From: an uncultured virus (IMG/VR IMGVR_UViG_3300028569_000032)
Taxonomy: Duplodnaviria; Heunggongvirae; Uroviricota; Caudoviricetes
Length of the DNA: 64,000 bases
Reading direction: 5' to 3' (one strand)
IMG/VR virus record: IMGVR_UViG_3300028569_000032
Positions 221 to 39,099 of the stretch are shown here, piece after piece. A program made the position numbers and the translations under genes. The notes under the pieces are model-generated. The model was not told the origin of the DNA, ran no database searches, and worked only from the letters and a program-made list of their open reading frames with translations. Within the stretch, counting starts at the first letter, position 1; each line of letters starts with the position of its first letter.

Positions 221-1233
221 GAAACAATCAAGATGAACCTAGATTTGAAAACTTTTCATTCAAAGAATGGCTCCTTACCGAAAAAGAAAAAGGATGGGGA
301 GATTGGATTGCTAAAAAAACAGGTCAATTCGTAGGAGCAGGAGCAGGTTATATCTACGGATTCAGTTCAAGCCTACTAAAAAGTCTTGGAAATAGAATCA
401 GCGATGTAGTTAAATACATTTCATCAAATCCAAGACAAGCAACCAAAATGGCAGCAATAGTTGGAGTGGCTATGCTCACAGGTGGAATAGTTGGTAGAAT
501 ATCACACGATGTCGTTGATGCAGTAAGCAGCAAAATAAGCCAAGTAATGCCAAGTGCAGACCCACAAGATATACAATCAACTATGGTTCAGGTATCTCCA
601 GCACAAGACGCTGTAGCTGCTAAATCCCAAACTGTACAAGATGCCGCAACAGCTAAATCACAAGCAGCACAAGATGCCGTAGATGCTAAAAGAGATATTT
701 TTGGAAGAATGATAAGTCCTGACGCACAGGAAACAAAAAATCTATTCCGTGCCATGAAAGATACCTTTGGAGGAAATTCCCACGAACTTAAAATGGGTTC
801 TATTCCTCATGGAATGACTGTAGACATGAATGGAGATGGAATACCCGATAATCCTACTTTTAACTATTACAATAAAACAGATCATACTTTTTATGGATCA
901 GATGGTAAGCCTGAATGGAGATTTGACGGTAATAAAATCATGTCTGTTGATAAAAACTCATTTGTAGCACCAGCAACATCGGTTCCATCAGCGCCAGTAG
1001 CACCAGTAGCACCAGTAGCACCATCAGCGCCAGTAGATACACAATCTGCACCATCATACCTTCAAACAAAAATGCAACTTGCTCATAACCGTATTGCACA
1101 GATGAAACAAGATGCTGCTGAAGCTGAACGTCTAGGAGCAGCATCAGGAAATTTACCATCAGTCAGAACACTTCCCGATGGAAGCGTTATGAAAAGCTTT
1201 TCTGGTAGATTACCACCCGGATATTCAAGATGA
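1..1233 (+). CDS. Hypothetical protein, 5'-truncated by the window edge, with 21-aa repeats; paralog of 6729..7937
   Basis: Frame +1 is open from base 1 (DSADFEKIWANVRPQTQSFGR x3 ... FSFKEWLLTE ...) and runs in frame into the 448..1233 ORF. Confidence 0.8.
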   Translation, partial: DSADFEKIWANVRPQTQSFGRDSADFEKIWANVRPQTQSFGRDSADFEKIWANVRPQTQSFGRGSADFEKRWARNNQDEPRFENFSFKEWLLTEKEKGWGDWIAKKTGQFVGAGAGYIYGFSSSLLKSLGNRISDVVKYISSNPRQATKMAAIVGVAMLTGGIVGRISHDVVDAVSSKISQVMPSADPQDIQSTMVQVSPAQDAVAAKSQTVQDAATAKSQAAQDAVDAKRDIFGRMISPDAQETKNLFRAMKDTFGGNSHELKMGSIPHGMTVDMNGDGIPDNPTFNYYNKTDHTFYGSDGKPEWRFDGNKIMSVDKNSFVAPATSVPSAPVAPVAPVAPSAPVDTQSAPSYLQTKMQLAHNRIAQMKQDAAEAERLGAASGNLPSVRTLPDGSVMKSFSGRLPPGYSR

Positions 1234-1781
1234 TGAAAAATATGATTAATTTCAAAAATTGGCTTGTAGCAGAAGAAAAAGAAATAGAAGTAATCAGCAC
1301 CCCAACAGGTGATTACTGCTCCGGAGTGAGCATGAATGTTGACCTTTGGTATTCACCACAAAATAGCGAATTTCTTAAAGTAAAAAATAAAGAAGAACTC
1401 ATCAATTCCCTTGTCGATGCAGCCGAACATGGAAATATGAAAGTTTTTGATAAAAAATTAACTCTTTATGACAACAACCCAGAATCAGGATTCACCTACC
1501 TTATCGTTCTAGGACAAAGCCATATTATTATTCATACTTGGCCAGAAAAAGGACTTCTAAACTTAGATGTATTCACATGCGGAAGCGAAGGAGATCCAAA
1601 AGCTATTTTCAATTGGATAGAAATGAAATTCCCACCTCAACACAAACAAGTTAAACAAAATGATCGTGGAATAAGAAAACATGTCCAAGACGCAAATGAA
1701 AGACTTGATAAGCCAAGTGACCTAAAACCAGATTCAAAATTTAATGCTCTTAAATCAAAAAATAAATATAAAATTGGTTGA
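1230..1781 (+). CDS. speD: S-adenosylmethionine decarboxylase proenzyme (pyruvoyl, SpeD/SpeH-like)
   Basis: GFTYLIVLGQSHIIIHTWPEKGLLNLDVFTCG matches the SHxxxHTWPE...DxFTCG signature. Confidence 0.85.
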   Translation: MMKNMINFKNWLVAEEKEIEVISTPTGDYCSGVSMNVDLWYSPQNSEFLKVKNKEELINSLVDAAEHGNMKVFDKKLTLYDNNPESGFTYLIVLGQSHIIIHTWPEKGLLNLDVFTCGSEGDPKAIFNWIEMKFPPQHKQVKQNDRGIRKHVQDANERLDKPSDLKPDSKFNALKSKNKYKIG

Positions 1782-3283: not shown

Positions 3284-4411
3284 ATGTATCTCTGGACAAG
3301 CGAAGCAGTTTCTAAAGGCCATCCAGACAAAGTCGCTGATCAAATCGCCGACTCAGTTCTCGATGCATACCTTTCAATTGACCCAACACAACGTGTCGCA
3401 TGTGAAGTAACATGTTGCAAAAAAGTCGTTCTCGTCACAGGAGAAGTAAGCAGCAGCAAGTCTGTTGATATCGACTCTATCGTTCGCAATAAAATCAAAG
3501 AAATCGGATATAATCATCCCGATACCAGTTATGACGGCAACACCGTCAAAGTTCTTAACCTCATCAATACCCAATCAGATCAAATCGCCAACGCTGTTGC
3601 CAAAGAAAATGGCGATATCGGTGCAGGTGACCAAGGAATTATGTTTGGATTCGCATGTGACGAAACATCTTCTCTCATGCCTCTTGCTCACCACCTTTCC
3701 TTCAAGGCTATCAACGCACTTGAAGCAAACAGGACTTCATCTGATTCTCCATTACTTCCAGATGCTAAGTCACAAGTAACAATCGCTTATAACGATAACG
3801 GTACTCCAAACCATATCGACACAGTCCTTGTTTCAACACAACACAAAGAAAGAGCATTCAGCAATATTGCTGAATTAAAAGAATACTTGCATAAAGTAGT
3901 TCAGCCTTCTATCGCTGAACTTTATGAGAAGTATATCAACTCCAATACCAAGTGGCTCTATAACCCAGCAGGTCTTTGGACATTCGGAGGACCCGGAGCA
4001 GATACAGGATTAAGCGGAAGAAAAATCGTAGTCGATAACTACGGAGCAGATTGCCCAATTGGAGGAGGTAGCTTCAGTGGTAAAGATCCAACCAAGGTTG
4101 ACCGTAGCGCAGCATACGCAGCACGTCATGTGGCCAAAAATATCGTCGCCCAAGGACTCGCTAAAAGATGCCAAGTCCAAATATCTTACGCAATCGGAGT
4201 GGCAGAACCAGTCTCAGTCCGTGTCCAAACTTTCGGAACAGGAGACGATTCCAAATTGACCAGACTAGTTCAAAACAATGTCCAACTCAGTCCAAAAGCC
4301 ATCATCGACCGATTCCAACTTCGTCGCCCTATCTACTCAGCTACGGCAACAGGAGGCCACTTCGGAAGAGATCAATTCCCTTGGGAATTGATTAACCTGA
4401 AAATCAACTAA
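3284..4411 (+). CDS. metK: S-adenosylmethionine synthetase
   Basis: SEAVSKGHPDKVADQIAD, GAGDQG, GRKIVVDNYG and GGGSFSGKDPTKVDRS motifs. Confidence 0.98.
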   Translation: MYLWTSEAVSKGHPDKVADQIADSVLDAYLSIDPTQRVACEVTCCKKVVLVTGEVSSSKSVDIDSIVRNKIKEIGYNHPDTSYDGNTVKVLNLINTQSDQIANAVAKENGDIGAGDQGIMFGFACDETSSLMPLAHHLSFKAINALEANRTSSDSPLLPDAKSQVTIAYNDNGTPNHIDTVLVSTQHKERAFSNIAELKEYLHKVVQPSIAELYEKYINSNTKWLYNPAGLWTFGGPGADTGLSGRKIVVDNYGADCPIGGGSFSGKDPTKVDRSAAYAARHVAKNIVAQGLAKRCQVQISYAIGVAEPVSVRVQTFGTGDDSKLTRLVQNNVQLSPKAIIDRFQLRRPIYSATATGGHFGRDQFPWELINLKIN

Positions 4412-15335: not shown

Positions 15336-15935
15336 AGCGCATCTCCTGTGAAGTAAGGTGGATCACTTGTCCCCCTTACAATTACTACTCGGTCAGACTT
15401 GCACTCTGACATAACCGTTTTTTTCTATATTTTTGTATATTTTGTGATATATCCTGATATCAGGATTTTTAGGAGAAACTTAGAGTACAATGCCCAAAGA
15501 ATAATATCGTTTCAAACTTGGAGTACAATGGCCAAAGATTCTTTTGGGCATTGTACTCTGAATTTGTGATTAAAAAAAATATGTGATACATGCTGTTATG
15601 CATGTATCACATATTTATCAAGACTTATCATCAACAGAAACAGATTCTTGATCTTGTGCGCTATTATCAACTCCTCTACAAATAGCGCACAATGCCCACA
15701 CTTGCAATGTGGGGCAAGCGTTGCCACCACAAGCCTCACAAACTCCACCGGGGATAGGCCCCCACATGTCAACATCAACATTAGACATCTTATATTTCCT
15801 TCAATACCCTTTTAAGAATCGCACCCCTTGTGCGATTCCTTTTTGTGTTCCGATGATGGTGATATCCAGCACCAGAACGATGTTGCTTGTGACCAGTGCT
15901 TATTCTGCACTGGTCAATCTTTATAGCAATTTTTA

Positions 15936-22207: not shown

Positions 22208-22351
22208 TCTCAGACTCCATCGCAACTTGTGAGAGGATCAATCGTCCTCCCTACAATCACTACTCGGTCAGACTTGCACTCTGACATAACCAATTATTTG
22301 TATATTTTGTGATATTTTTAGATATTTTATGATATAGACATAAAAAAAGCC

Positions 22352-22497
22352 TCGTAGAATACTCCACATGGCTTGTGGAATACTCTACGAGGCTTGTGGA
22401 ATACTCTACGAGGCTTGTTGAATACTCTACGAGGCTTGTTGAATACTCTACGAGGCTTGTTGAATACTCTACGAGGCTTGTTGAATACTCTACGAGG
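22352..22497. repeat. 21-bp tandem array of the GTGGAATACTCTAC family (7 units)
   Basis: Units of gt(g/t)gaatactctacgaggctt; dispersed copies near 16397, 16900, 16921, 17888-17925, 18324-18380, 18863, 20331, 23728-23785, 27416, 40528. Confidence 0.9.
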
Positions 22498-26528: not shown

Positions 26529-26602
26529 TGACCCCGTTGGGATTTGAACCCAAGACCCTCTGCTTAAAAGGCAGATGCTCTAGCCAACTGAGCTACGAGG
26601 TC
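26529..26602 (-). tRNA. tRNA-Lys (UUU)
   Basis: GACCTCG-TAGCTCAGTTGGCTAGAGC-TCTGC CTTTTAA GCAGA...GGTTCAAATCC-CGGGGTCA cloverleaf; CCA not encoded. Confidence 0.93.
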
Positions 26603-27489: not shown

Positions 27490-28149
27490 TTAGCTTTCTA
27501 ATATTTTCTTTTTATTTAGGAATTCGCTCCAGCTTCCGAAGAAGCTTTTTGCGTGTTCTACTGATTCAAAAGTGAATGTCTTTTTATTTTTCCATAACAT
27601 TGAGTGAAACATTCCAGCCTTACCAGCCTTTAGTTTACCTGTAGGTTCATCAGAGACTCCTGCTGGAACCATAACTCCATTACCGGGAAAAACAGACTTA
27701 CCATTCTCGTCATAATCAATTGTGCCAAGAAGGTATGCAGTTGGGTCACCATAAGGCTTGAAAATAATTGATTCCTGATCAAATTTACTCCCAAGATTAG
27801 AAACCTTATCTTTGAAATCCTGATTCCATTGCTTGTTTACATTAGAAACGTGTTCTTTTTCATCCTTGGACATATCAGGAGTTTCAACTTTCATAGGACG
27901 AGATGCGATAAAGAGAACATCTTCATCAACAGGATGCTTCTCACCCTTGGTTCCAAATCCCTCGACATACTTACCTTTCATCTTAACATAACCAAATCCA
28001 GCAGCACGAACCATACTCTTAAGCTCATCAGTCCTTTGATCATTCTCTTCTTTGGAATAAATTCCTCTAGAAGCTGAAATGATTGCAAAAGCATTATGCT
28101 CAAAATGCTGGATAACTCTATTCAAACTGTTGATCGCTGCCTCGTTCAT
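27490..28149 (-). CDS. T3 SAMase-like SAM lyase homologue
   Basis: IISASRG..EENDQR...RAAGFGY...GKYVE...E...FDQESIIF parallels the T3 SAMase pattern (SAFR..N..R..RAA.G.Y..G.Y.E..E..EQDCV), recalled from memory. Confidence 0.6.
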   Translation of the reverse strand: MNEAAINSLNRVIQHFEHNAFAIISASRGIYSKEENDQRTDELKSMVRAAGFGYVKMKGKYVEGFGTKGEKHPVDEDVLFIASRPMKVETPDMSKDEKEHVSNVNKQWNQDFKDKVSNLGSKFDQESIIFKPYGDPTAYLLGTIDYDENGKSVFPGNGVMVPAGVSDEPTGKLKAGKAGMFHSMLWKNKKTFTFESVEHAKSFFGSWSEFLNKKKILES

Positions 28150-30430: not shown

Positions 30431-30801
30431 TACTCTTTTTGGTAAATAATCGCATAAAAAAAGGGTGGCATAGAGTTAACTATGCCACCCTTGAAATATT
30501 AATTCACATCAGGATTGTCTACTTCAACCAATCCAGAAACTTCATAGTTTTACTGATAATAAATCAGCCGTAACCAAATTTGTCCCTAGACTTTCCGTGT
30601 CATATTCTGAATCGGGACCATTCATAACCACCTCATACGCCTTTTCTTTTGCCTCTTGTAGGCTAGAGGCTTCTAGAATTACTGTGTGTTCAAGAGTCTC
30701 TTGAATTATTACTTCATACTTGGCCATTGTCACACACTCCTTTGGGTAAAAAATCGCATGAAAAAGGGTGGCATAGAGTTAACTATGCCACCCTTGAAAT
30801 A
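30431..30801. repeat. Duplicated terminator-plus-SD linker, about 65 bp (about 30432-30498 and 30736-30801)
   Basis: aatcgcat.aaaaagggtggcatagagttaactatgccacccttgaaata occurs twice. Confidence 0.85.
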
Positions 30802-30985
30802 ACAGGCACTAGCAGGATACGGTCAACCGTCTAACCAGTTAACGGTCTTTCACCTGCCGCTTATCCGCCAAACCCAGTCACCTTACGAGTACTTCACTGC
30901 AAGTCGTCTGGAAACGGCTTGGGCAACCCCTGAGAGAGATGCAAGAGCATTGCATCCCCCTCAGACTTGAGAGTTTGGTTTCGCC
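30800..30985 (-). ncRNA. Candidate structured RNA downstream of the Ubl gene
   Basis: GC-richer ORF-free stretch with several hairpins (ctgagggggatgcaa..ttgcatctctctcag; caagccgt..acgacttg; gcagg..accgt..acggt..cctgc), followed by a terminator. Confidence 0.4.
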
Positions 30986-30988
30986 AAA

Positions 30989-31270
30989 TTAGCCCTTTAC
31001 GCCAGCCTGCTTGATGAACTCAAGAGACTCGTTGGCGTTGAGGATGTGATCCTCACCAACCTGAATACCGTTGACAAATGCAACAGCATCAGAAGGGATG
31101 TTGTGGGTCTGGGCGAATGTGCTGCGAGCAGCACTCACCGTATGACCACCCAATGGATAACTGCCATCAGCAGTTCCGTGAATAACCTTCACCAAATTAG
31201 AAGCCAAAGCACTCAAAGCACCCTGAGCTTCAACACTGTTTGCGAAACCAGTCGAAAGAACATCGCTCAT
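30989..31270 (-). CDS. Ubiquitin-like (ThiS/MoaD beta-grasp) protein
   Basis: GHTVSAAR...NIPSDAVAFVNG...ILNANESLEFIKQAGVKG ending in Gly; AAGGAG SD; element at 31314. Confidence 0.8.
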   Translation of the reverse strand: MSDVLSTGFANSVEAQGALSALASNLVKVIHGTADGSYPLGGHTVSAARSTFAQTHNIPSDAVAFVNGIQVGEDHILNANESLEFIKQAGVKG

Positions 31271-31385
31271 AGTAAACTCCTTACCCTTGTTAGAATCAAC
31301 CACCCCTACAAACACTACTCGGTCAGACTTGCACTCCAACATAACCAATTTTCGATATATTTTCTGATATTTTAAGATATCAGCT

Positions 31386-32108
31386 TTATCGAACCCACCT
31401 TTGCATTGGAACGGCCTTCATTGTAGGCATGTCCATCACCACTTCACCATACAAATGTGGATTTGCAAGGATCTTTCCTGAGTATATCTCAGGATCGGTC
31501 ACATTGTAAAATGCAGAAAGCATTGTTGCTGCAATTAAATTGTTCACAATCACAATCTGAGGAACTTCCTCTGCCATTCTACTACAAGATCCCGGCTGAT
31601 TCATCTCACTAGGATGAAGATCAGTAGGATTTGCAATCTCAGAGTGATATTGAGTGATAGGTGCAGTAATGTTCTTGCCATCACGACGAATGTGCAAAAA
31701 CACATTACCATCCAACCTATCATTACCACCACTGATCAAAGTGATATTATCCAACTCACATACACGCTCAGAAACTAACTTCCTAGACTTGTGATTATCC
31801 ACACACAACATGACAATGTCATTCTCACGAATGTAACGGACAACATTGTCCTCATCCAAATATACTGGATGATCATAAATTTGAATCCTGCCAAACTTAC
31901 CCTTCAGGTTGTTGGCAGTAACAGTTGCCTTCGCTCCAATCTGATCAAAATCCTGCCTCACTGCATTCTTATCTTCAAATGTATCTCCATCAATAAGATG
32001 AAGCTCGACATCATTAAACTTGTCCCAAGAGTAATTTAGGAAACGACCCAAAACTGGAAGGACACACAAGCCAATGCCGCCAGTACCAATAACCTTTACC
32101 TTATGCAT
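31386..32108 (-). CDS. ThiF/E1-like adenylyltransferase
   Basis: VIGTGGIG, LIDGDTFEDKNAVRQ, MLCVDNHKSR, GSC...PQ..IVN motifs. Confidence 0.9.
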   Translation of the reverse strand: MHKVKVIGTGGIGLCVLPVLGRFLNYSWDKFNDVELHLIDGDTFEDKNAVRQDFDQIGAKATVTANNLKGKFGRIQIYDHPVYLDEDNVVRYIRENDIVMLCVDNHKSRKLVSERVCELDNITLISGGNDRLDGNVFLHIRRDGKNITAPITQYHSEIANPTDLHPSEMNQPGSCSRMAEEVPQIVIVNNLIAATMLSAFYNVTDPEIYSGKILANPHLYGEVVMDMPTMKAVPMQRWVR

Positions 32109-32225
32109 CTTATACTCCATTAGGTTATCTTCGCATACACTACTCGGTCAGACTTGCAGTCCAACATAACCAATTTCGGGTGGAGGAAATTGATTTATTC
32201 CTCCACCCGAAATTATCAACTGATA

Positions 32226-33191
32226 TCAATCGCCATCCCATTCTTGGATTCCCCAAGAATTATCCTCACCATAACGCCAACTCCTACCATAAAGCCATCC
32301 CTGACCCTTAGTGATATCTTCCCAATTCTCATTGGTATCACTAGATGTTTTAGATGTGCTTGATGGAACCCAAGAGTCAGCACGAGTAATACGAGGCTCA
32401 ACCTTATCAATCCAATCTTTCAATAACTTCTCACGGAAGAATTCTAATTCACTCAAATCATCCTCATTCAATTCCAGACGGAAATAATATTCCATTCTGG
32501 TGAAAGACTTCTTGACAGGAATTCCACGAACCTTGGAATCGTACTCTTCGACAACTTCCTCTTCCGAATCACTAACAATACCAAAAGCAACATCAGAAGG
32601 TTCCAATTTACTTCTGTTATTGCTGAAGACAATACTGCTGGCAATGCTGAATCTATCAGAATTGACATGACCAAATGTCAGATGAACTCCATCAAATGTA
32701 GCTTCATCTGCCTCGTCAGTGCCAGAATGGAATGCACTAAAATCACAATGAGAGTGAATAGTGCCAACCATCTGCCAACCATCACCATCATTCCCAATGT
32801 AATCACGATCCTCGACAGGAACAGTATCTGTCCTATCATAATTGACAGAACCATAACTGACAGTCTGCTTCGGACACCAGAGACGATATGACTCAAGCTT
32901 CTTGGAGTAAAGAAGAGTCAAATAGGACTCTGAACGATACCTATCGAAAACAGCATTGAAGAATGTTTTGGCCTGAGCCGTAACCAATGCTGAAATCTTA
33001 GGTAATGTGAAATTACCATTGGTATTGGCTGATGCAAGGAAAGGAATCTCCTTGACCCTAACCAGTGCAGAACCATGAAGACGCTCAACTCTCATATAAA
33101 TACCATCCTTGGCAACCAGATAGTAAGTTCCGGTTGAAGGAGGAACAAAACCTTCAGATGCGAGATAAACAGGGAAAAGAGGCAATGCCAT
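32226..33191 (-). CDS. JAB/MPN metalloprotease (deubiquitinase-like)
   Basis: E...VGTIHSHCDFSAFHSGTDEADE JAMM motif. Confidence 0.9.
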   Translation of the reverse strand: MALPLFPVYLASEGFVPPSTGTYYLVAKDGIYMRVERLHGSALVRVKEIPFLASANTNGNFTLPKISALVTAQAKTFFNAVFDRYRSESYLTLLYSKKLESYRLWCPKQTVSYGSVNYDRTDTVPVEDRDYIGNDGDGWQMVGTIHSHCDFSAFHSGTDEADEATFDGVHLTFGHVNSDRFSIASSIVFSNNRSKLEPSDVAFGIVSDSEEEVVEEYDSKVRGIPVKKSFTRMEYYFRLELNEDDLSELEFFREKLLKDWIDKVEPRITRADSWVPSSTSKTSSDTNENWEDITKGQGWLYGRSWRYGEDNSWGIQEWDGD

Positions 33192-33218
33192 AGTAAACTC
33201 CTTTAGTGTGGTTGAAAA

Positions 33219-34661
33219 TCAAACTGCTTTGCGAGGCCTACCCCTACCCCTCTTGATTGGTTGTCCATCAGGACCAACAACAAGAGTGCTTGACGAAACA
33301 CGATTCAAACTGATAGCAATACTATCAGGAAGTTTATCTTTCTTAGGACGACCACGCTTCTTTGTCACAACGATATCACCATTCTCGTCAATATGCTGAC
33401 TCAACTTAGCCTTAAGAACAGAAACCTCATCCAACTTCTGCAAAAGATACTGGTTAACTGCATAAAGCTCACATTGAACCTTCAACTTCTCTGCTGCAAT
33501 CCTTTCTCTCTCAAGTTCAATGTTGCGAAGAATAGAACTACTGCTGTTAATAATCGTCTCTATCTCTGCCTTCTTGCGATCAAGATTGGCATTATCAAGA
33601 CGAACCTTTTTCTCATGTTCGTGATGCAATTCACTCCACATATTACTATATGCAGTGCTTGCAATGTTACGAACAGTAGACTGCAATGCAACCATATGAG
33701 GTTGATTGCGATTCTCTTCCATGATATCAACACTATTCAAATGAGTAGTCAAAATTCTTACGAAGTCTACAACTCCTTCGTTGATAGTAGACTTCATGTT
33801 GTTGACGAAAGCAACCTTGCTGTTCCTGCTAGCCAAATCAGATGGTAAAAGATTACCAACAAGATGACGAGGTGAAGTCTGCAAGATAGTTTGAGGCTTG
33901 ATAGCAAACATTGAATCTTCTGAAGTCAACTTCTGCCATGCCTCAAAACCACGAACATAATTCTCATAATGCCTATCAGTTTCCTTACTAGCAAAATCAT
34001 AGAAGAAAACATCATTCAGAAAACTCTGAAGATTCTGGTTCAAATCTACATTGAACTCACTAGACCAATACGAACTGATAATCGTATTGACCTTCTCAGT
34101 AATGTTGCGCCCACCATTATTCGGCAGATTCATGTTCCCAACACATACTGAAGTGCTAGAAACATTAGGCAATGGAACAAGACAGTACTGATCCTGCAAA
34201 CTCGTTATTGGACGCTTCGTTGCAGTAATATGCAAACTACTGAAGTTATCACCAGCAGCATTGCAGTTAAATGTCACATAGAACTGAATGAAAGGCAAAC
34301 TAATGTTGTAATTAGCCTGCATGAAAGAAATACGCCTGACAGTTGGCTTCTGCTCAACAATGATAGTCAAATAAGTGCTATCACGATGAACGAACCTCGT
34401 ACCCTCTGGGACAACCATCAACTGGTTGCTGTTGTTGTCAATCCAACTGTTAACCATGGTTCCAAGTGAACCACTGATGTTGGAAACAAAACTGCTTACA
34501 ATCGGCTCAGACTTCTCTTGAACAGACACATCAAGATTTGACTTGATACGCCTCAATACTGTAGCTGTCCCTTCCCGCATTAGATTCAACGTAGCTGGAG
34601 TTGAATCCCAATCCTTCACACCATTGACGAAACCGTCAATAATCTCTTTGGGAGAACTCAT
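33219..34661 (-). CDS. Prokaryotic E2-like protein with coiled coil and C-terminal AT-hooks
   Basis: SLPFIQF...PLPNVSSTSVCVGN E2-like Cys motif; KKRGRPKK and KRGRGRPRK; position in the E1/JAB/Ubl operon. Confidence 0.7.
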   Translation of the reverse strand: MSSPKEIIDGFVNGVKDWDSTPATLNLMREGTATVLRRIKSNLDVSVQEKSEPIVSSFVSNISGSLGTMVNSWIDNNSNQLMVVPEGTRFVHRDSTYLTIIVEQKPTVRRISFMQANYNISLPFIQFYVTFNCNAAGDNFSSLHITATKRPITSLQDQYCLVPLPNVSSTSVCVGNMNLPNNGGRNITEKVNTIISSYWSSEFNVDLNQNLQSFLNDVFFYDFASKETDRHYENYVRGFEAWQKLTSEDSMFAIKPQTILQTSPRHLVGNLLPSDLASRNSKVAFVNNMKSTINEGVVDFVRILTTHLNSVDIMEENRNQPHMVALQSTVRNIASTAYSNMWSELHHEHEKKVRLDNANLDRKKAEIETIINSSSSILRNIELERERIAAEKLKVQCELYAVNQYLLQKLDEVSVLKAKLSQHIDENGDIVVTKKRGRPKKDKLPDSIAISLNRVSSSTLVVGPDGQPIKRGRGRPRKAV

Positions 34662-34997
34662 AATCAAACTCCTTTGGGTTTATGTCTACTACTCGGTCGG
34701 ACTTGCACTCCAACATAATCAATTAAGAACATAATGATGAGCCTTGTTGCTCTCTGCGAACTTCTTAGCCTCAATGGCATCTTTGAACCTTGGACTATTT
34801 ACTTCAAGCTGATTTATGCCTCTGTAGTCACGAATGGAAAGGAAATAGTTATATCCTTCTTCGAGACTCTGAGGGAAACTACAAGGATAAAACCTATAGT
34901 TCCTTATGAAAAAAGGCTTGAGAGTATCATCCTTCTTTGGCCAAACCTTCTTCTTTCTTTCGACTTCTGCTTCTTTCCAATTGTTCATGATATCTCC

Positions 34998-36545: not shown

Positions 36546-37766
36546 TCATGTTAGATCTTTAAGATCACTGAGAAATTGCTTTCTAAGGTCAGTGACCACT
36601 TCGGTATAGACCCTTTCCCTTTGATCAGAAGGAACCTTGAGAATCAGATACCTCAATGTTTCATAGATTGAAATATTAGGAGAACACTTATCAGATTCAT
36701 CATCCATCTCCATAACTTTCAGCATACCAACATCAGTAAGCTTATAACCTCTGCTGGTTACAGTGATCAATGATGGCTGATCGCTCGTCTCAGCCATCAA
36801 AACAGGCACAATGAACCTTTCAAGCTCCTCCTCCTTCCTTCCTACAAGGGAACATAAGGTTTTCTTGGCAACTGGACCAGACTTCAAGCAATTCAATACT
36901 TTAACTTCTAACTCATGAAAACCATATTCATTTATGCCTTCATCATTTGCGACACTCCTAGCTACATCCTCCCAACTCTTGTCCACATGCATCTGTTTGT
37001 ACATCTGCATGTAACGAGCAAACTCCAATGCCTTTCTAGGAACCCTTGGATTATAACTTGCTACAATGATGCAAACTTCATCAGATAAATCAGGATTTGC
37101 TTTCTTGACTATCTTTGCGATATCAGACTTGGGCAGATACTGCAAATGGACAGCAGAGAACCTAGTCCGAAATGCATCGAATAGTTTACCTTCATCGGTG
37201 GTTGCGATAATCCAAGTTGCAGAAAATGTATTCAAGACCCTACCATTCTCTGTCATCATCAACGAATCATTAAACTCAGTAGCCTTGAGCAAACCCTGAA
37301 TTATACCATCAGGAATTGCATGAACTTCATCAATGAATATAACAGTCGGAGGTAGACAGTAGTTCCTAGAAACATCCTCGACCAGACCTATACCATGATT
37401 AGTCAAAACTGAATTCACAAGATCAAAAACATCATTGACATTTTTCACTCCCTTGGGAGATATCTCGACGAATGGTAGCTTGACCACATCTGCATAAATC
37501 CTTGCCAGTGTAGTCTTACCAGCAGAAGCAGGCCCAAATATGGCAAAAGACAAGTCCCTCATCATGTGAGTAGGATCGCCCAGTGCCTTATATGCTGCAA
37601 CCTGCAACTTCCTTACAGCTTTGTCGTTGCCAACAAATCGACTGAAAGGGCTGTTTGGATTATCACGACTAACCTTCAACAACTTCTCTTCATCGGTGGG
37701 AGGAAGACGCTTTAATGCATCCTCCTCACCAAAAAATACATAATGAGGTTGCATCAAATACTCCAT
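36546..37766 (-). CDS. ruvB: RuvB-like AAA+ ATPase
   Basis: FVGN, GPASAGKTTLA, FIDEVH, ATT..GKL..AFRTRF, PRKAL, C-terminal SRG. Confidence 0.75.
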   Translation of the reverse strand: MEYLMQPHYVFFGEEDALKRLPPTDEEKLLKVSRDNPNSPFSRFVGNDKAVRKLQVAAYKALGDPTHMMRDLSFAIFGPASAGKTTLARIYADVVKLPFVEISPKGVKNVNDVFDLVNSVLTNHGIGLVEDVSRNYCLPPTVIFIDEVHAIPDGIIQGLLKATEFNDSLMMTENGRVLNTFSATWIIATTDEGKLFDAFRTRFSAVHLQYLPKSDIAKIVKKANPDLSDEVCIIVASYNPRVPRKALEFARYMQMYKQMHVDKSWEDVARSVANDEGINEYGFHELEVKVLNCLKSGPVAKKTLCSLVGRKEEELERFIVPVLMAETSDQPSLITVTSRGYKLTDVGMLKVMEMDDESDKCSPNISIYETLRYLILKVPSDQRERVYTEVVTDLRKQFLSDLKDLT

Positions 37767-38301: not shown

Positions 38302-38571
38302 TTACGCTGCTTCAACAACTACTAATGTCTTTGCTTCCTCAACAACCACTTCTTTAACCACTTTGCGAGGACGACCACGTTTCAAACGTAATGGAGGACG
38401 ACCTCCCTTTCCACTCCTCACCAGATTGCGAAGAGTAGGGACACTTGCAATGATACCAGATTCATTCAGAACTTGTTCAGCCCCATTCAAGCCAAACTCA
38501 GATACTACACGCTTGACCAGAGCGATCTGGTCTTTGGTGAACTGCTTCTTAGGACGACCTGCCTTAGCCAT
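38302..38571 (-). CDS. Small AT-hook-type DNA-binding protein
   Basis: KAGRPKK, GGRPP and KRGRPRK motifs; element at 38602. Confidence 0.65.
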   Translation of the reverse strand: MAKAGRPKKQFTKDQIALVKRVVSEFGLNGAEQVLNESGIIASVPTLRNLVRSGKGGRPPLRLKRGRPRKVVKEVVVEEAKTLVVVEAA

Positions 38572-39099
38572 GTCAAACTCCTTTGGGTTATCGTTACAAT
38601 GACTACTCGGTCCAATCCGCACTCCAACATAACCAATTATTTGTATATTTTTGTATATTTTCTGATATCAACCTTCTACAACTTCATCTCTGCACTTTTT
38701 AGGAAGACTTGCTATGAATGGGTATAAGACATTGTCAATAAATGTCGTGCTTTCACCTGTCAATTCTTCAATCTTACTCTTAAGGTCAGAAATAAGCCTC
38801 ACTACAGCAATGTCAATCGACTGCTTCTTAGTAAAATCGTCACTGTACCTTATCATTTGAAAAACCCTCAAGCCATTTGTTCTCCACAATCACTACTCGG
38901 TCCAATCCGCACTCCAACATAACCAATTATTTGTATATTTTCTGATATTTCTTGTTATAAAATCATTTTTATGGTTTTATAACAAGAAAACGTAGAGTAC
39001 AATGCCCAAAAACCTCTTTTTATTCAAAACTCAGAGTACAATGCCCAAGAAAACCTTTGAGCATTGTACTCCAAACTCCAAAATAAAGTACAATGCCCA

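Follow-up and report, generated by a model that had tools for sequence, protein, structure and literature searches.

Conjugation of ubiquitin-like proteins (Ubls) in bacteria has so far been demonstrated for host defence, in CBASS Cap2 and Bil, and biochemically for Bub. In type I and type II Bil systems, the formation of isopeptides between the Ubl and lysine is reported (PMC10557695, PMC11601596). A further class of operons, 6d, was defined by Iyer, Burroughs and Aravind in 2006 (PMC1779556), and PRTRC has been termed a system of mobile elements (PMC3318190). The current study deals with a cassette of four adjoining genes in a 64,000-nucleotide stretch of DNA (the window) from the uncultured virus IMGVR_UViG_3300028569_000032, in which the calls of open reading frames (ORFs) placed an E2-like protein, a JAB metallopeptidase, an E1 and a Ubl side by side on the minus strand (table 1). 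Class 6d is presumably the same as PRTRC (TIGR03735-03738), an assumption that we make from shared Pfam and NCBIfam matches. Judged by its sequence, the cassette represents a divergent branch of class 6d/PRTRC and not a canonical member.

The cassette is real, intact and phage-borne, and belongs to a class that is catalogued and common and of an apparently untested kind. The literature searched contained no functional test of a 6d/PRTRC system and no description of a complete phage-encoded cassette, examples of which may be listed in subscription papers and supplementary tables. JAB, Ubl and ThiF never occur in the main text of a 2021 survey of jumbo phages (PMC7824862), and the passages on ThiF genes of archaeal elements in PMC13444090 treat these genes as metabolic. 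The initial annotation had proposed the set of four genes from the letters of the window, and both the motifs and the family matches of the proteins bear this out. It had also regarded the location in a phage as unusual, which was overstated: a search with an E1 alignment detected related E1 genes in 205 viral loci, as well as in 200 cellular-genome loci, and cultured phages carry them too. The best 80 loci of each set were analysed, the viral set including some near-duplicates. A survey of phages for the same gene order had been recommended, and the order E2-JAB-E1-Ubl was found in 70/80 of the viral loci; nine of the other ten end at a contig edge. The same order occurred in 27/80 cellular loci, including Methylomirabilota and Patescibacteria, although a few of these "cellular" contigs are of low guanine-plus-cytosine (GC) content and may be misbinned phage DNA. 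The cassette remained intact down to E1 identities of 35-45%. Thus it is not unique, since the order is also found in bacteria and related genes are found in cultured phages.

The E1 scored 57.7 against ThiF (Pfam cut-off 28.1) and carries GTGGIG at residues 12-17. Its best NCBIfam match was TIGR03736 PRTRC_ThiF (E=5.7e-11), with a similar score for MoeB, and the protein has neither a rhodanese domain nor a CxxC zinc site. Among 82 viral ORFs, 80 have the motif around the invariant Cys179, and the two without it are second ThiF paralogues. Cys179 is placed after the adenylation core, like the crossover-loop Cys described for UBA5 and Cap2 (PMC11601596, bioRxiv 2022.03.31.486616). The real start codon is probably the ATG at 32108, because the first ATG is missing from a near-identical locus (L010).

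In the JAB protein the motif is H146-x-H148-x7-S156-x2-D159. These four residues and E88 were invariant in 9/9 aligned sequences, and the motif was found in 79/79 viral loci. The score against Prok-JAB was 23.8 bits (Pfam cut-off 25), while the profile of the protein reached Rpn11/PSMD14 (E=5e-4). Its N-terminal extension matched DUF2016 at E=0.3, with no invariant Arg or Trp there in a 9-row alignment. For the Ubl, searches of Pfam, PHROG and PADLOC gave no match and NCBIfam gave none that was meaningful, but its predicted structure matched beta-grasp folds, the nearest being of the MoaD/ThiS type. A 119-aa ORF from 31348 merely reads through the upstream element. PADLOC also left the E2 and JAB proteins unmatched and matched the E1 weakly. 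Direct scans with the Ubl (in GTDB) and with the E2 (in IMG/VR) returned nothing; alignment-based scans succeeded in both cases.

Residues 163-175 of the E2-like protein are PLPNVSSTSVCVG, in which we take LPN...C to be the counterpart of the HPN...C motif known from E2 enzymes, with Leu in place of His. The protein matched Prok-E2_D in Pfam with 24.9 bits (curated cut-off 25, E=1.9e-5) and TIGR03737 PRTRC_B with E=0.057, and Prok-E2_D was found in 30/30 of its matches in the ESM Atlas. For an alignment of the core, 175 sequences were entered, and residues were counted in the 165 that had a core of 90 aa or more: Cys173 was present in 165/165, Asn166 in 161 and Asp206 in 133. In an independent set of loci, the Cys was found in 80/81 viral and 39/42 cellular-genome ORFs. 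In the predicted structure, a helix is followed by a meander of five strands (88-148), then by a short strand that carries Cys173 and by helices. The Pfam and Atlas matches, the motif and the topology of the model together identify the protein as a putative E2. No plasmid match to the core was detected.

Table 1. Features of the cassette and associated elements in the window.
Feature	Position	Strand	Remarks
Putative E2-like protein, 480 aa	33219..34661	-	N-terminal helices, Prok-E2_D core ~75-250, coiled coil 279-421, basic tail
Predicted E2 catalytic Cys173 codon	34143..34145	-	L-P-N166-x6-C173
Two AT-hook cores, RGRP at 436 and 473	33234..33356	-	Pfam AT_hook x2
JAB/JAMM metallopeptidase, 321 aa	32226..33191	-	TIGR03735 PRTRC_A E=2.5e-8; N-terminal extension and acidic tail
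Minimal ThiF-type E1, 244 aa (240 aa from the probable start, ATG 32108)	31386..32120	-	ThiF E=1.2e-15
E1 crossover-loop Cys179 codon	31584-31586	-	residue invariant 11/11
Ubl, 93 aa	30989..31270	-	beta-grasp ~27-93, free C-terminal G-x-K-G, ends AGVKG
34-bp element 5' of the E2 gene, promoter/operator-like	34688..34721	-	sequence repeat
34-bp element 5' of the E1 gene	32139..32172	-	sequence repeat
34-bp element 5' of the Ubl gene	31314..31347	-	sequence repeat
Sigma-factor-like phage gene	12652-13341	-	phrog_1740, E=1e-7
Terminator-like hairpin ending the cassette unit	30764..30795	-	sequence and fold; identical hairpin at 30461-30492
Conserved non-coding stretch 3' of the Ubl stop	30803..30928	-	probable structured RNA

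The fusion of the E2 to a coiled coil and two AT-hooks, noted at the outset, was recovered from the secondary structure of the model and from the two RGRP cores. The AT_hook match scored 16.9 (Pfam cut-off 17.4), and the basic tail has 14 K/R against 5 D/E in its last 55 aa. By a strict count of RGRP, the hooks were retained in 7/8 aligned homologues, and a hook-like motif lies within the last 90 residues of 17/28 homologues of 440-600 aa. On the E1 tree, the hooked loci and the window form one cluster (SH-aLRT 98, quick search), so the AT-hook tail is restricted to one small phage clade; the branches neighbouring it have two to three hookless E2 paralogues instead. An RGRP in a cellular E2 was not scored as a hook, as it sits inside the core and not in the tail. 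The GC content does not track the hooks (37-48% in hooked and 27-55% in hookless loci), and that they select AT-rich phage DNA therefore stays a guess. Two to three E2 ORFs with unrelated extensions were found in 8/80 viral loci (one of these being a split gene), and the E2 is the variable part of the cassette. For a Phocaeicola prophage, PRTRC protein B is described as a hotspot linked to a diversity-generating retroelement (bioRxiv 10.64898/2026.10.01.756045); together with the variability of the E2, this fits a choice of targets by the E2. One regular expression for the sliding-clamp motif found no match in seven proteins.

The Ubls of related loci vary at both ends. Of 79 viral C-termini, 53 end at Gly, 17 have one extra Cys and eight have other extensions. 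Bacillus phage WH1 gp211 consists of five tandem Ubls (L005:793-1692) and scored above the PRTRC_C cut-off, and Vibrio phage D69 has three (L007:3262-4053), every unit ending GTKG. Tandem or extended precursors need the JAB, which points to a cleavable tag used in bulk. At the N-terminus, a Rho_N domain was detected in 48/79 viral Ubls (E<=0.01), those of the largest viral clade. Rho_N domains would be expected to bind nucleic acid. A large conserved gene lies downstream in 67/80 viral loci and in one of them (L001) encodes the RNA polymerase beta' subunit. In a large clade of viral contigs, mostly of low GC content (most of the loci L126-L196), the E2 has 820-890 aa with an unknown C-terminal region of 600 aa, and the order is E2, JAB, E1, Rho_N-Ubl, followed by a second ThiF gene and the RNA polymerase beta' gene.

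The nearest relatives of the Ubl lie outside any cassette in 11 of 17 metagenome loci, which are all of high GC content and include two duplicate pairs. In ten of these 11 the frame runs past a GxKG-like junction into further domains. The domains fused to such Ubls include HTH_17, a winged helix-turn-helix, a D12 adenine methylase and DUF3102 (L015-L025, L198, L203), and the fusions sit in high-GC, planctomycete-like mobile DNA, mostly with the GxKG-like junction. No Ubl fusion was found among 8000 candidates of 327-2000 aa, which is weak evidence.

Related genes in cultured phages were found in Salmonella phage Arash, Acinetobacter phage ME3, Bacillus phages WH1, Edson and KLEB27-3, and Vibrio phages D69, D181 and D148. 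The JAB of ME3 has only 144 aa, its gene lies apart from that of the E1, with a tRNA-Met and other ORFs between them (L004:2742-5178), and an interruption is possible; one ME3 gene is labelled "PRTRC system protein A" in GenBank. The E1, JAB, E2 and Ubl of Arash (Gp246, 247, 248 and 251) are all listed as detected in particle preparations (PMC10585845), in a paper whose main text contains neither "ubiquitin" nor "ThiF".

Protein conjugation of some kind is the probable function of the cassette. As to its direction, our best guess, which agrees with the initial annotation and is held tentatively, is a phage-encoded, reversible, E3-free conjugation of the Ubl to proteins on DNA. From what is known of the ThiF/MoeB/UBA5 family, whose motifs are present, the E1 would adenylate Gly93 of the Ubl with ATP, and the invariant cysteines suggest that the Ubl would then pass as a thioester to Cys179 of the E1 and on to Cys173 of the E2. 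By analogy with Bil and Cap2, the E2 itself may select the target and form an isopeptide with lysine, aided by Asn166 and Asp206. The E2 probably dimerises through its coiled coil, and its AT-hooks would grip the minor groove of AT-rich DNA, so that tagging would be concentrated on DNA-bound phage or host proteins such as polymerases, sigma factors, nucleoid proteins and nucleases. The JAB would strip the tag and, in relatives, also mature precursors; since the Ubl in the window already ends in Gly, deconjugation is the role left for the JAB. The elements ahead of the E1 and Ubl genes could allow the tag to be made in excess over the E2. The recurrence of nucleic-acid modules (AT-hooks in the E2, Rho_N in the Ubl, and the Ubl fusions) points to targets on DNA. 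It is conceivable, though on balance unlikely, that huge phages at large run a SUMO-like reversible modification on DNA, reached by independent routes through AT-hooks, Rho_N and Ubl fusions, and that class 6d/PRTRC as a whole serves this purpose. On that view, an anchored E2 would mark proteins on AT-rich, likely phage, DNA without an E3, and would thereby switch or evict polymerases, nucleoid proteins or host nucleases as the phage takes over the cell.

Several results weigh against conjugation on DNA. Iyer and co-workers proposed that a His completes the active site of 6d E2s, and this His is missing here: no conserved His column follows Cys173, as judged from our own alignment and not from their figure, and the motif there is F203-N204-x-D206, with His at that column in 4/42 cellular ORFs. 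Structure searches with the full-length E2 model were filled by coiled coils and gave no UBC (ubiquitin-conjugating) fold; Foldseek returned nothing from the PDB at E<=0.001, VIA-align only coiled coils and BFVD three unnamed phage proteins. The core profile matched UBE2L3 at E=0.75, ranked below unrelated matches. A predicted complex of the E1 and the E2 core (score 0.02) was used neither for nor against. AT-hooks were found in 4/80 viral loci (two phage types) and in 0/77 homologues of 320-439 aa; being a minority feature, they indicate that the system can generally work without tethering its E2 to DNA. The Rho_N scores are mostly below the Pfam cut-off. The neighbours in the largest viral clade are a second ThiF-like gene (66/80) and a radical S-adenosylmethionine (SAM) gene (50/80), which would fit small-molecule chemistry too. 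Finally, the loci of the Ubl fusions have no E1, JAB or E2, and the fusions may therefore not be substrates.

If the same chemistry acted on proteins that are not bound to DNA, the hooks would only localise the E2, and the cassette could be a Bil-like weapon against co-infecting phages or could tag virion or assembly proteins of the phage itself, or enzymes of the host. Bil is described as conjugating its Ubl to phage structural proteins without an E3 (PMC11601596), the four Arash proteins were recovered with particles, the WH1 poly-Ubl is annotated as a "virion structural protein", and most E2 homologues are hookless. However, the Arash list is liberal, with 116 proteins and 2-5 unique peptides for each of the four, and its authors allow for carry-over (PMC10585845). 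A Bil-like role also fits poorly with the PADLOC result for E2, JAB and Ubl and with an E1 that lacks the multidomain form of BilD. We regard targets away from DNA as rather unlikely, although less so than the other alternatives.

The initial annotation had offered counter-defence as an alternative, in which the JAB would strip host Bil, Bub or CBASS conjugates, or the Ubl with E1 and E2 would serve as decoys. Hosts are described as deploying E1/E2/JAB systems against phages (PMC11601596, PMC10557695, bioRxiv 2022.03.31.486616), and the cassette has its upstream element in common with many small genes, which may be of a kind usually linked to host takeover. No support specific to the locus in the window was obtained for this idea. 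For deconjugation alone, the E1, E2 and Ubl would be dispensable, but the 70 viral loci of conserved order have all four genes with intact active sites, and the four-gene order also occurs in the cellular loci, making counter-defence improbable.

We are still more doubtful that the Ubl is a sulfur carrier (as a thiocarboxylate) or goes to a non-protein acceptor such as nucleic acid or lipid, with the hooks bringing this chemistry to DNA. The MoaD/ThiS-like model of the Ubl, the even scores of the E1 against MoeB and PRTRC_ThiF, the radical SAM and second ThiF neighbours in another clade, and weak Aminotran_5 matches in 2/2 complete relatives would agree with it. Known sulfur relays, in contrast, have no place for an E2 with an invariant Cys. 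No rhodanese and no gene of the TtcA/TtuA type (ATP_bind_3) was found in five related records, two of them complete, whereas the control searches matched 13 and 14 of 14 genomes. Aminotran_5 was matched only in part and more than 120 kb away from the cassette, and the window ORFs scanned included no sulfur-transfer family, although host enzymes could still supply the sulfur. That the four genes are inert cargo or act as a selfish addiction module (E1, E2 and Ubl toxic, JAB the antidote), without a part in infection, as the likening of patchy, mobile operons to toxin-antitoxin and restriction-modification systems in Iyer 2006 (PMC1779556) might suggest, is very improbable in view of lineage-specific upstream elements in three phage lineages and of a cassette kept intact over the range of E1 identities given above.

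The upstream elements were examined further. The initial annotation had assigned a 33-bp element to three of the four genes; all three copies were found again, as an element of 34 bp. It occurs 23 times in the window (14911-61468), always on the minus strand, and was not found in three mononucleotide shuffles. Copies have an AT-rich 5' flank and lie mostly 20-50 nt ahead of a ribosome-binding site; gene callers read through them and create the false N-terminus MxECKSDRVV. The gap between E2 and JAB is 27 nt and contains no element. A conserved hairpin was rejected as an explanation, because many copies break the stem. Sigma-70 sites were at chance level (17 against 16.1 expected), and the sigma factor predicted in the window (table 1) is a candidate reader of the element that could act at any stage; "early" timing is suggested only by the placement of the element before small genes. 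Two sister phages (L034 and L028) have their own, unrelated repeated elements before E1, in L034 also before E2; internal elements are thus a recurrent feature, with a different sequence each time. Two more repeat families share intergenic regions with the element, one a tandem repeat of a 21-bp unit and the other palindromic, with a unit of 66 nt (type copies at 22327-22497 and 15514-15579).

Between the Ubl stop and the terminator lies the stretch 30803-30928, a probable structured non-coding RNA. It is retained in a sister phage (L012/L026) while the flanking sequence diverges, and its fold has 35 predicted pairs, four of them with two-sided changes among four sequences. It had no Rfam match, and an exact-pattern scan of IMG/VR found two sister contigs only. 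In one RNA run (X3), an 8.3-kb contig of depth 48 matched the 3' end of the stretch and the terminator. Short contigs from RNA runs of two studies (151-243 nt, depth 2-9) matched parts of all four genes; as neither strand nor level can be read from them and DNA carry-over is possible, they were not counted as expression.

No virion gene was found among the window ORFs scanned. A sister record (G001), however, has the cassette, the upstream 89-aa gene, the RuvB-like ATPase and MetK (74%) together with a T4-type major capsid gene (E=2.7e-88). Because of these shared genes and the capsid gene the carrier is considered a phage, in agreement with the initial annotation. The sister record comprises 136.7 kb and is 31% complete according to CheckV, implying a genome of about 440 kb, and the cassette is also present in two relatives with complete genomes of 527 and 572 kb. 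A 155-kb contig (L009) is identical to the window across the cassette. The tail sheath family PF04984 was not found in four records. Three observations give weak hints of a planctomycete host: the E1 of a Planctomycetaceae genome falls within the E1 clade of the window, a DUF1559 gene adjoins a Ubl fusion, and the Ubl was found in 10/301 genomes of the planctomycete phylum, a count made with no control phylum.

The RuvB-like AAA+ ATPase (36546-37766, minus strand), which is retained in the sister phage, lies 1.9 kb upstream of the cassette, and in a Planctomycetaceae genome an integrated element likewise has a RuvB-like gene, with a Cys-less E1 and a Ubl fusion close by (L038, L198). A small basic protein with AT-hook-like motifs (38302-38622, minus strand) is encoded behind a copy of the element; it is a possible nucleoid protein and a candidate target. 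The window further contains genes related to SAM, namely for an AdoMet decarboxylase, MetK and a SAM-lyase-family protein, at 1230-1781 (plus strand), 3284-4411 (plus strand) and 27490-28149 (minus strand), and a tRNA-Lys(TTT) at 26529-26602 (minus strand).

If it is true that a phage uses the full cascade, the same chemistry serves both sides of the conflict between phages and their hosts, and an E2 tethered to DNA would be a bacterial parallel to chromatin-linked SUMO and ubiquitin signalling. The AT-hooks are a concrete and testable clue to the targets.

Among known systems, the cassette resembles class 6d/PRTRC in its stand-alone Ubl with a terminal Gly, its separate JAB next to the E1, its minimal E1 without rhodanese, its family-D E2 with the conserved Cys and no classical His, and its mobile carrier. 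The kinship with PRTRC, one of the bacterial types named in the initial annotation, holds as far as closeness is concerned, since the best NCBIfam matches of JAB, E1 and E2 were PRTRC_A, PRTRC_ThiF and PRTRC_B. It does not extend to membership: the cut-offs of TIGR03735-03738 were missed (33.7 against 101.8, 42.2 against 144.75 and 12.8 against 131.45 bits), the Ubl matches neither Prok_Ub nor PRTRC_C, and the absolutely conserved downstream His of the class 6d E2 is replaced here (FNxD). The order E2-JAB-E1-Ubl, the long helical extensions and two AT-hooks of the E2, and the huge phage with a T4-type capsid as carrier also differ from 6d/PRTRC, and no ParB was detected. The alpha-helical partner (alpha-hel2/protein F) was unmatched in the flanking ORFs and in five related records, in a search that had no positive control and for a family that diverges fast. 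Neighbours of the cassette are not conserved beyond sister phages.

Bil has the same four parts (Ubl, E2, JAB and E1) and likewise no E3, but it is a host anti-phage defence and its BilD is described as a multidomain IAD-AAD-CYS protein (PMC11601596), whereas the E1 here is a single, UBA5-like ThiF domain of about 240 aa. Bub (class 6e) is similar in its homodimeric-type minimal E1 domain and in the maturation of fused Ubls by a JAB. It is reported to form Tyr/Ser oxyesters and to have fused genes and a DUF6527 protease (PMC11601596), unlike the present cassette with its invariant Cys in both E1 and E2, separate genes and no DUF6527 match. With the ThiF/ThiS and MoeB/MoaD relays the cassette has an E1-like adenylation fold and a beta-grasp carrier in common; the ThiS and MoaD sulfur-carrier pathways are described as having no E2 (PMC10557695), while here an E2 is present, the E1 has no CxxC and no sulfur donor or acceptor gene lies nearby. 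The cassettes of cultured phages are alike in that E1, JAB and an E2 with PN...C...FNxDL motifs are clustered. They differ in their order, which is Ubl-helper-E2-JAB-E1 in Arash, WH1 and D69, in having no AT-hooks, in the poly-Ubl of WH1 and D69, and in E1s that are distant on the tree, and their annotations go no further than hypothetical, structural, ThiF or PRTRC A. The prediction of class 6d/PRTRC dates from 2006, and these cultured relatives (Arash, WH1 and D69) make the question testable now, the Arash proteins having already been seen by mass spectrometry.

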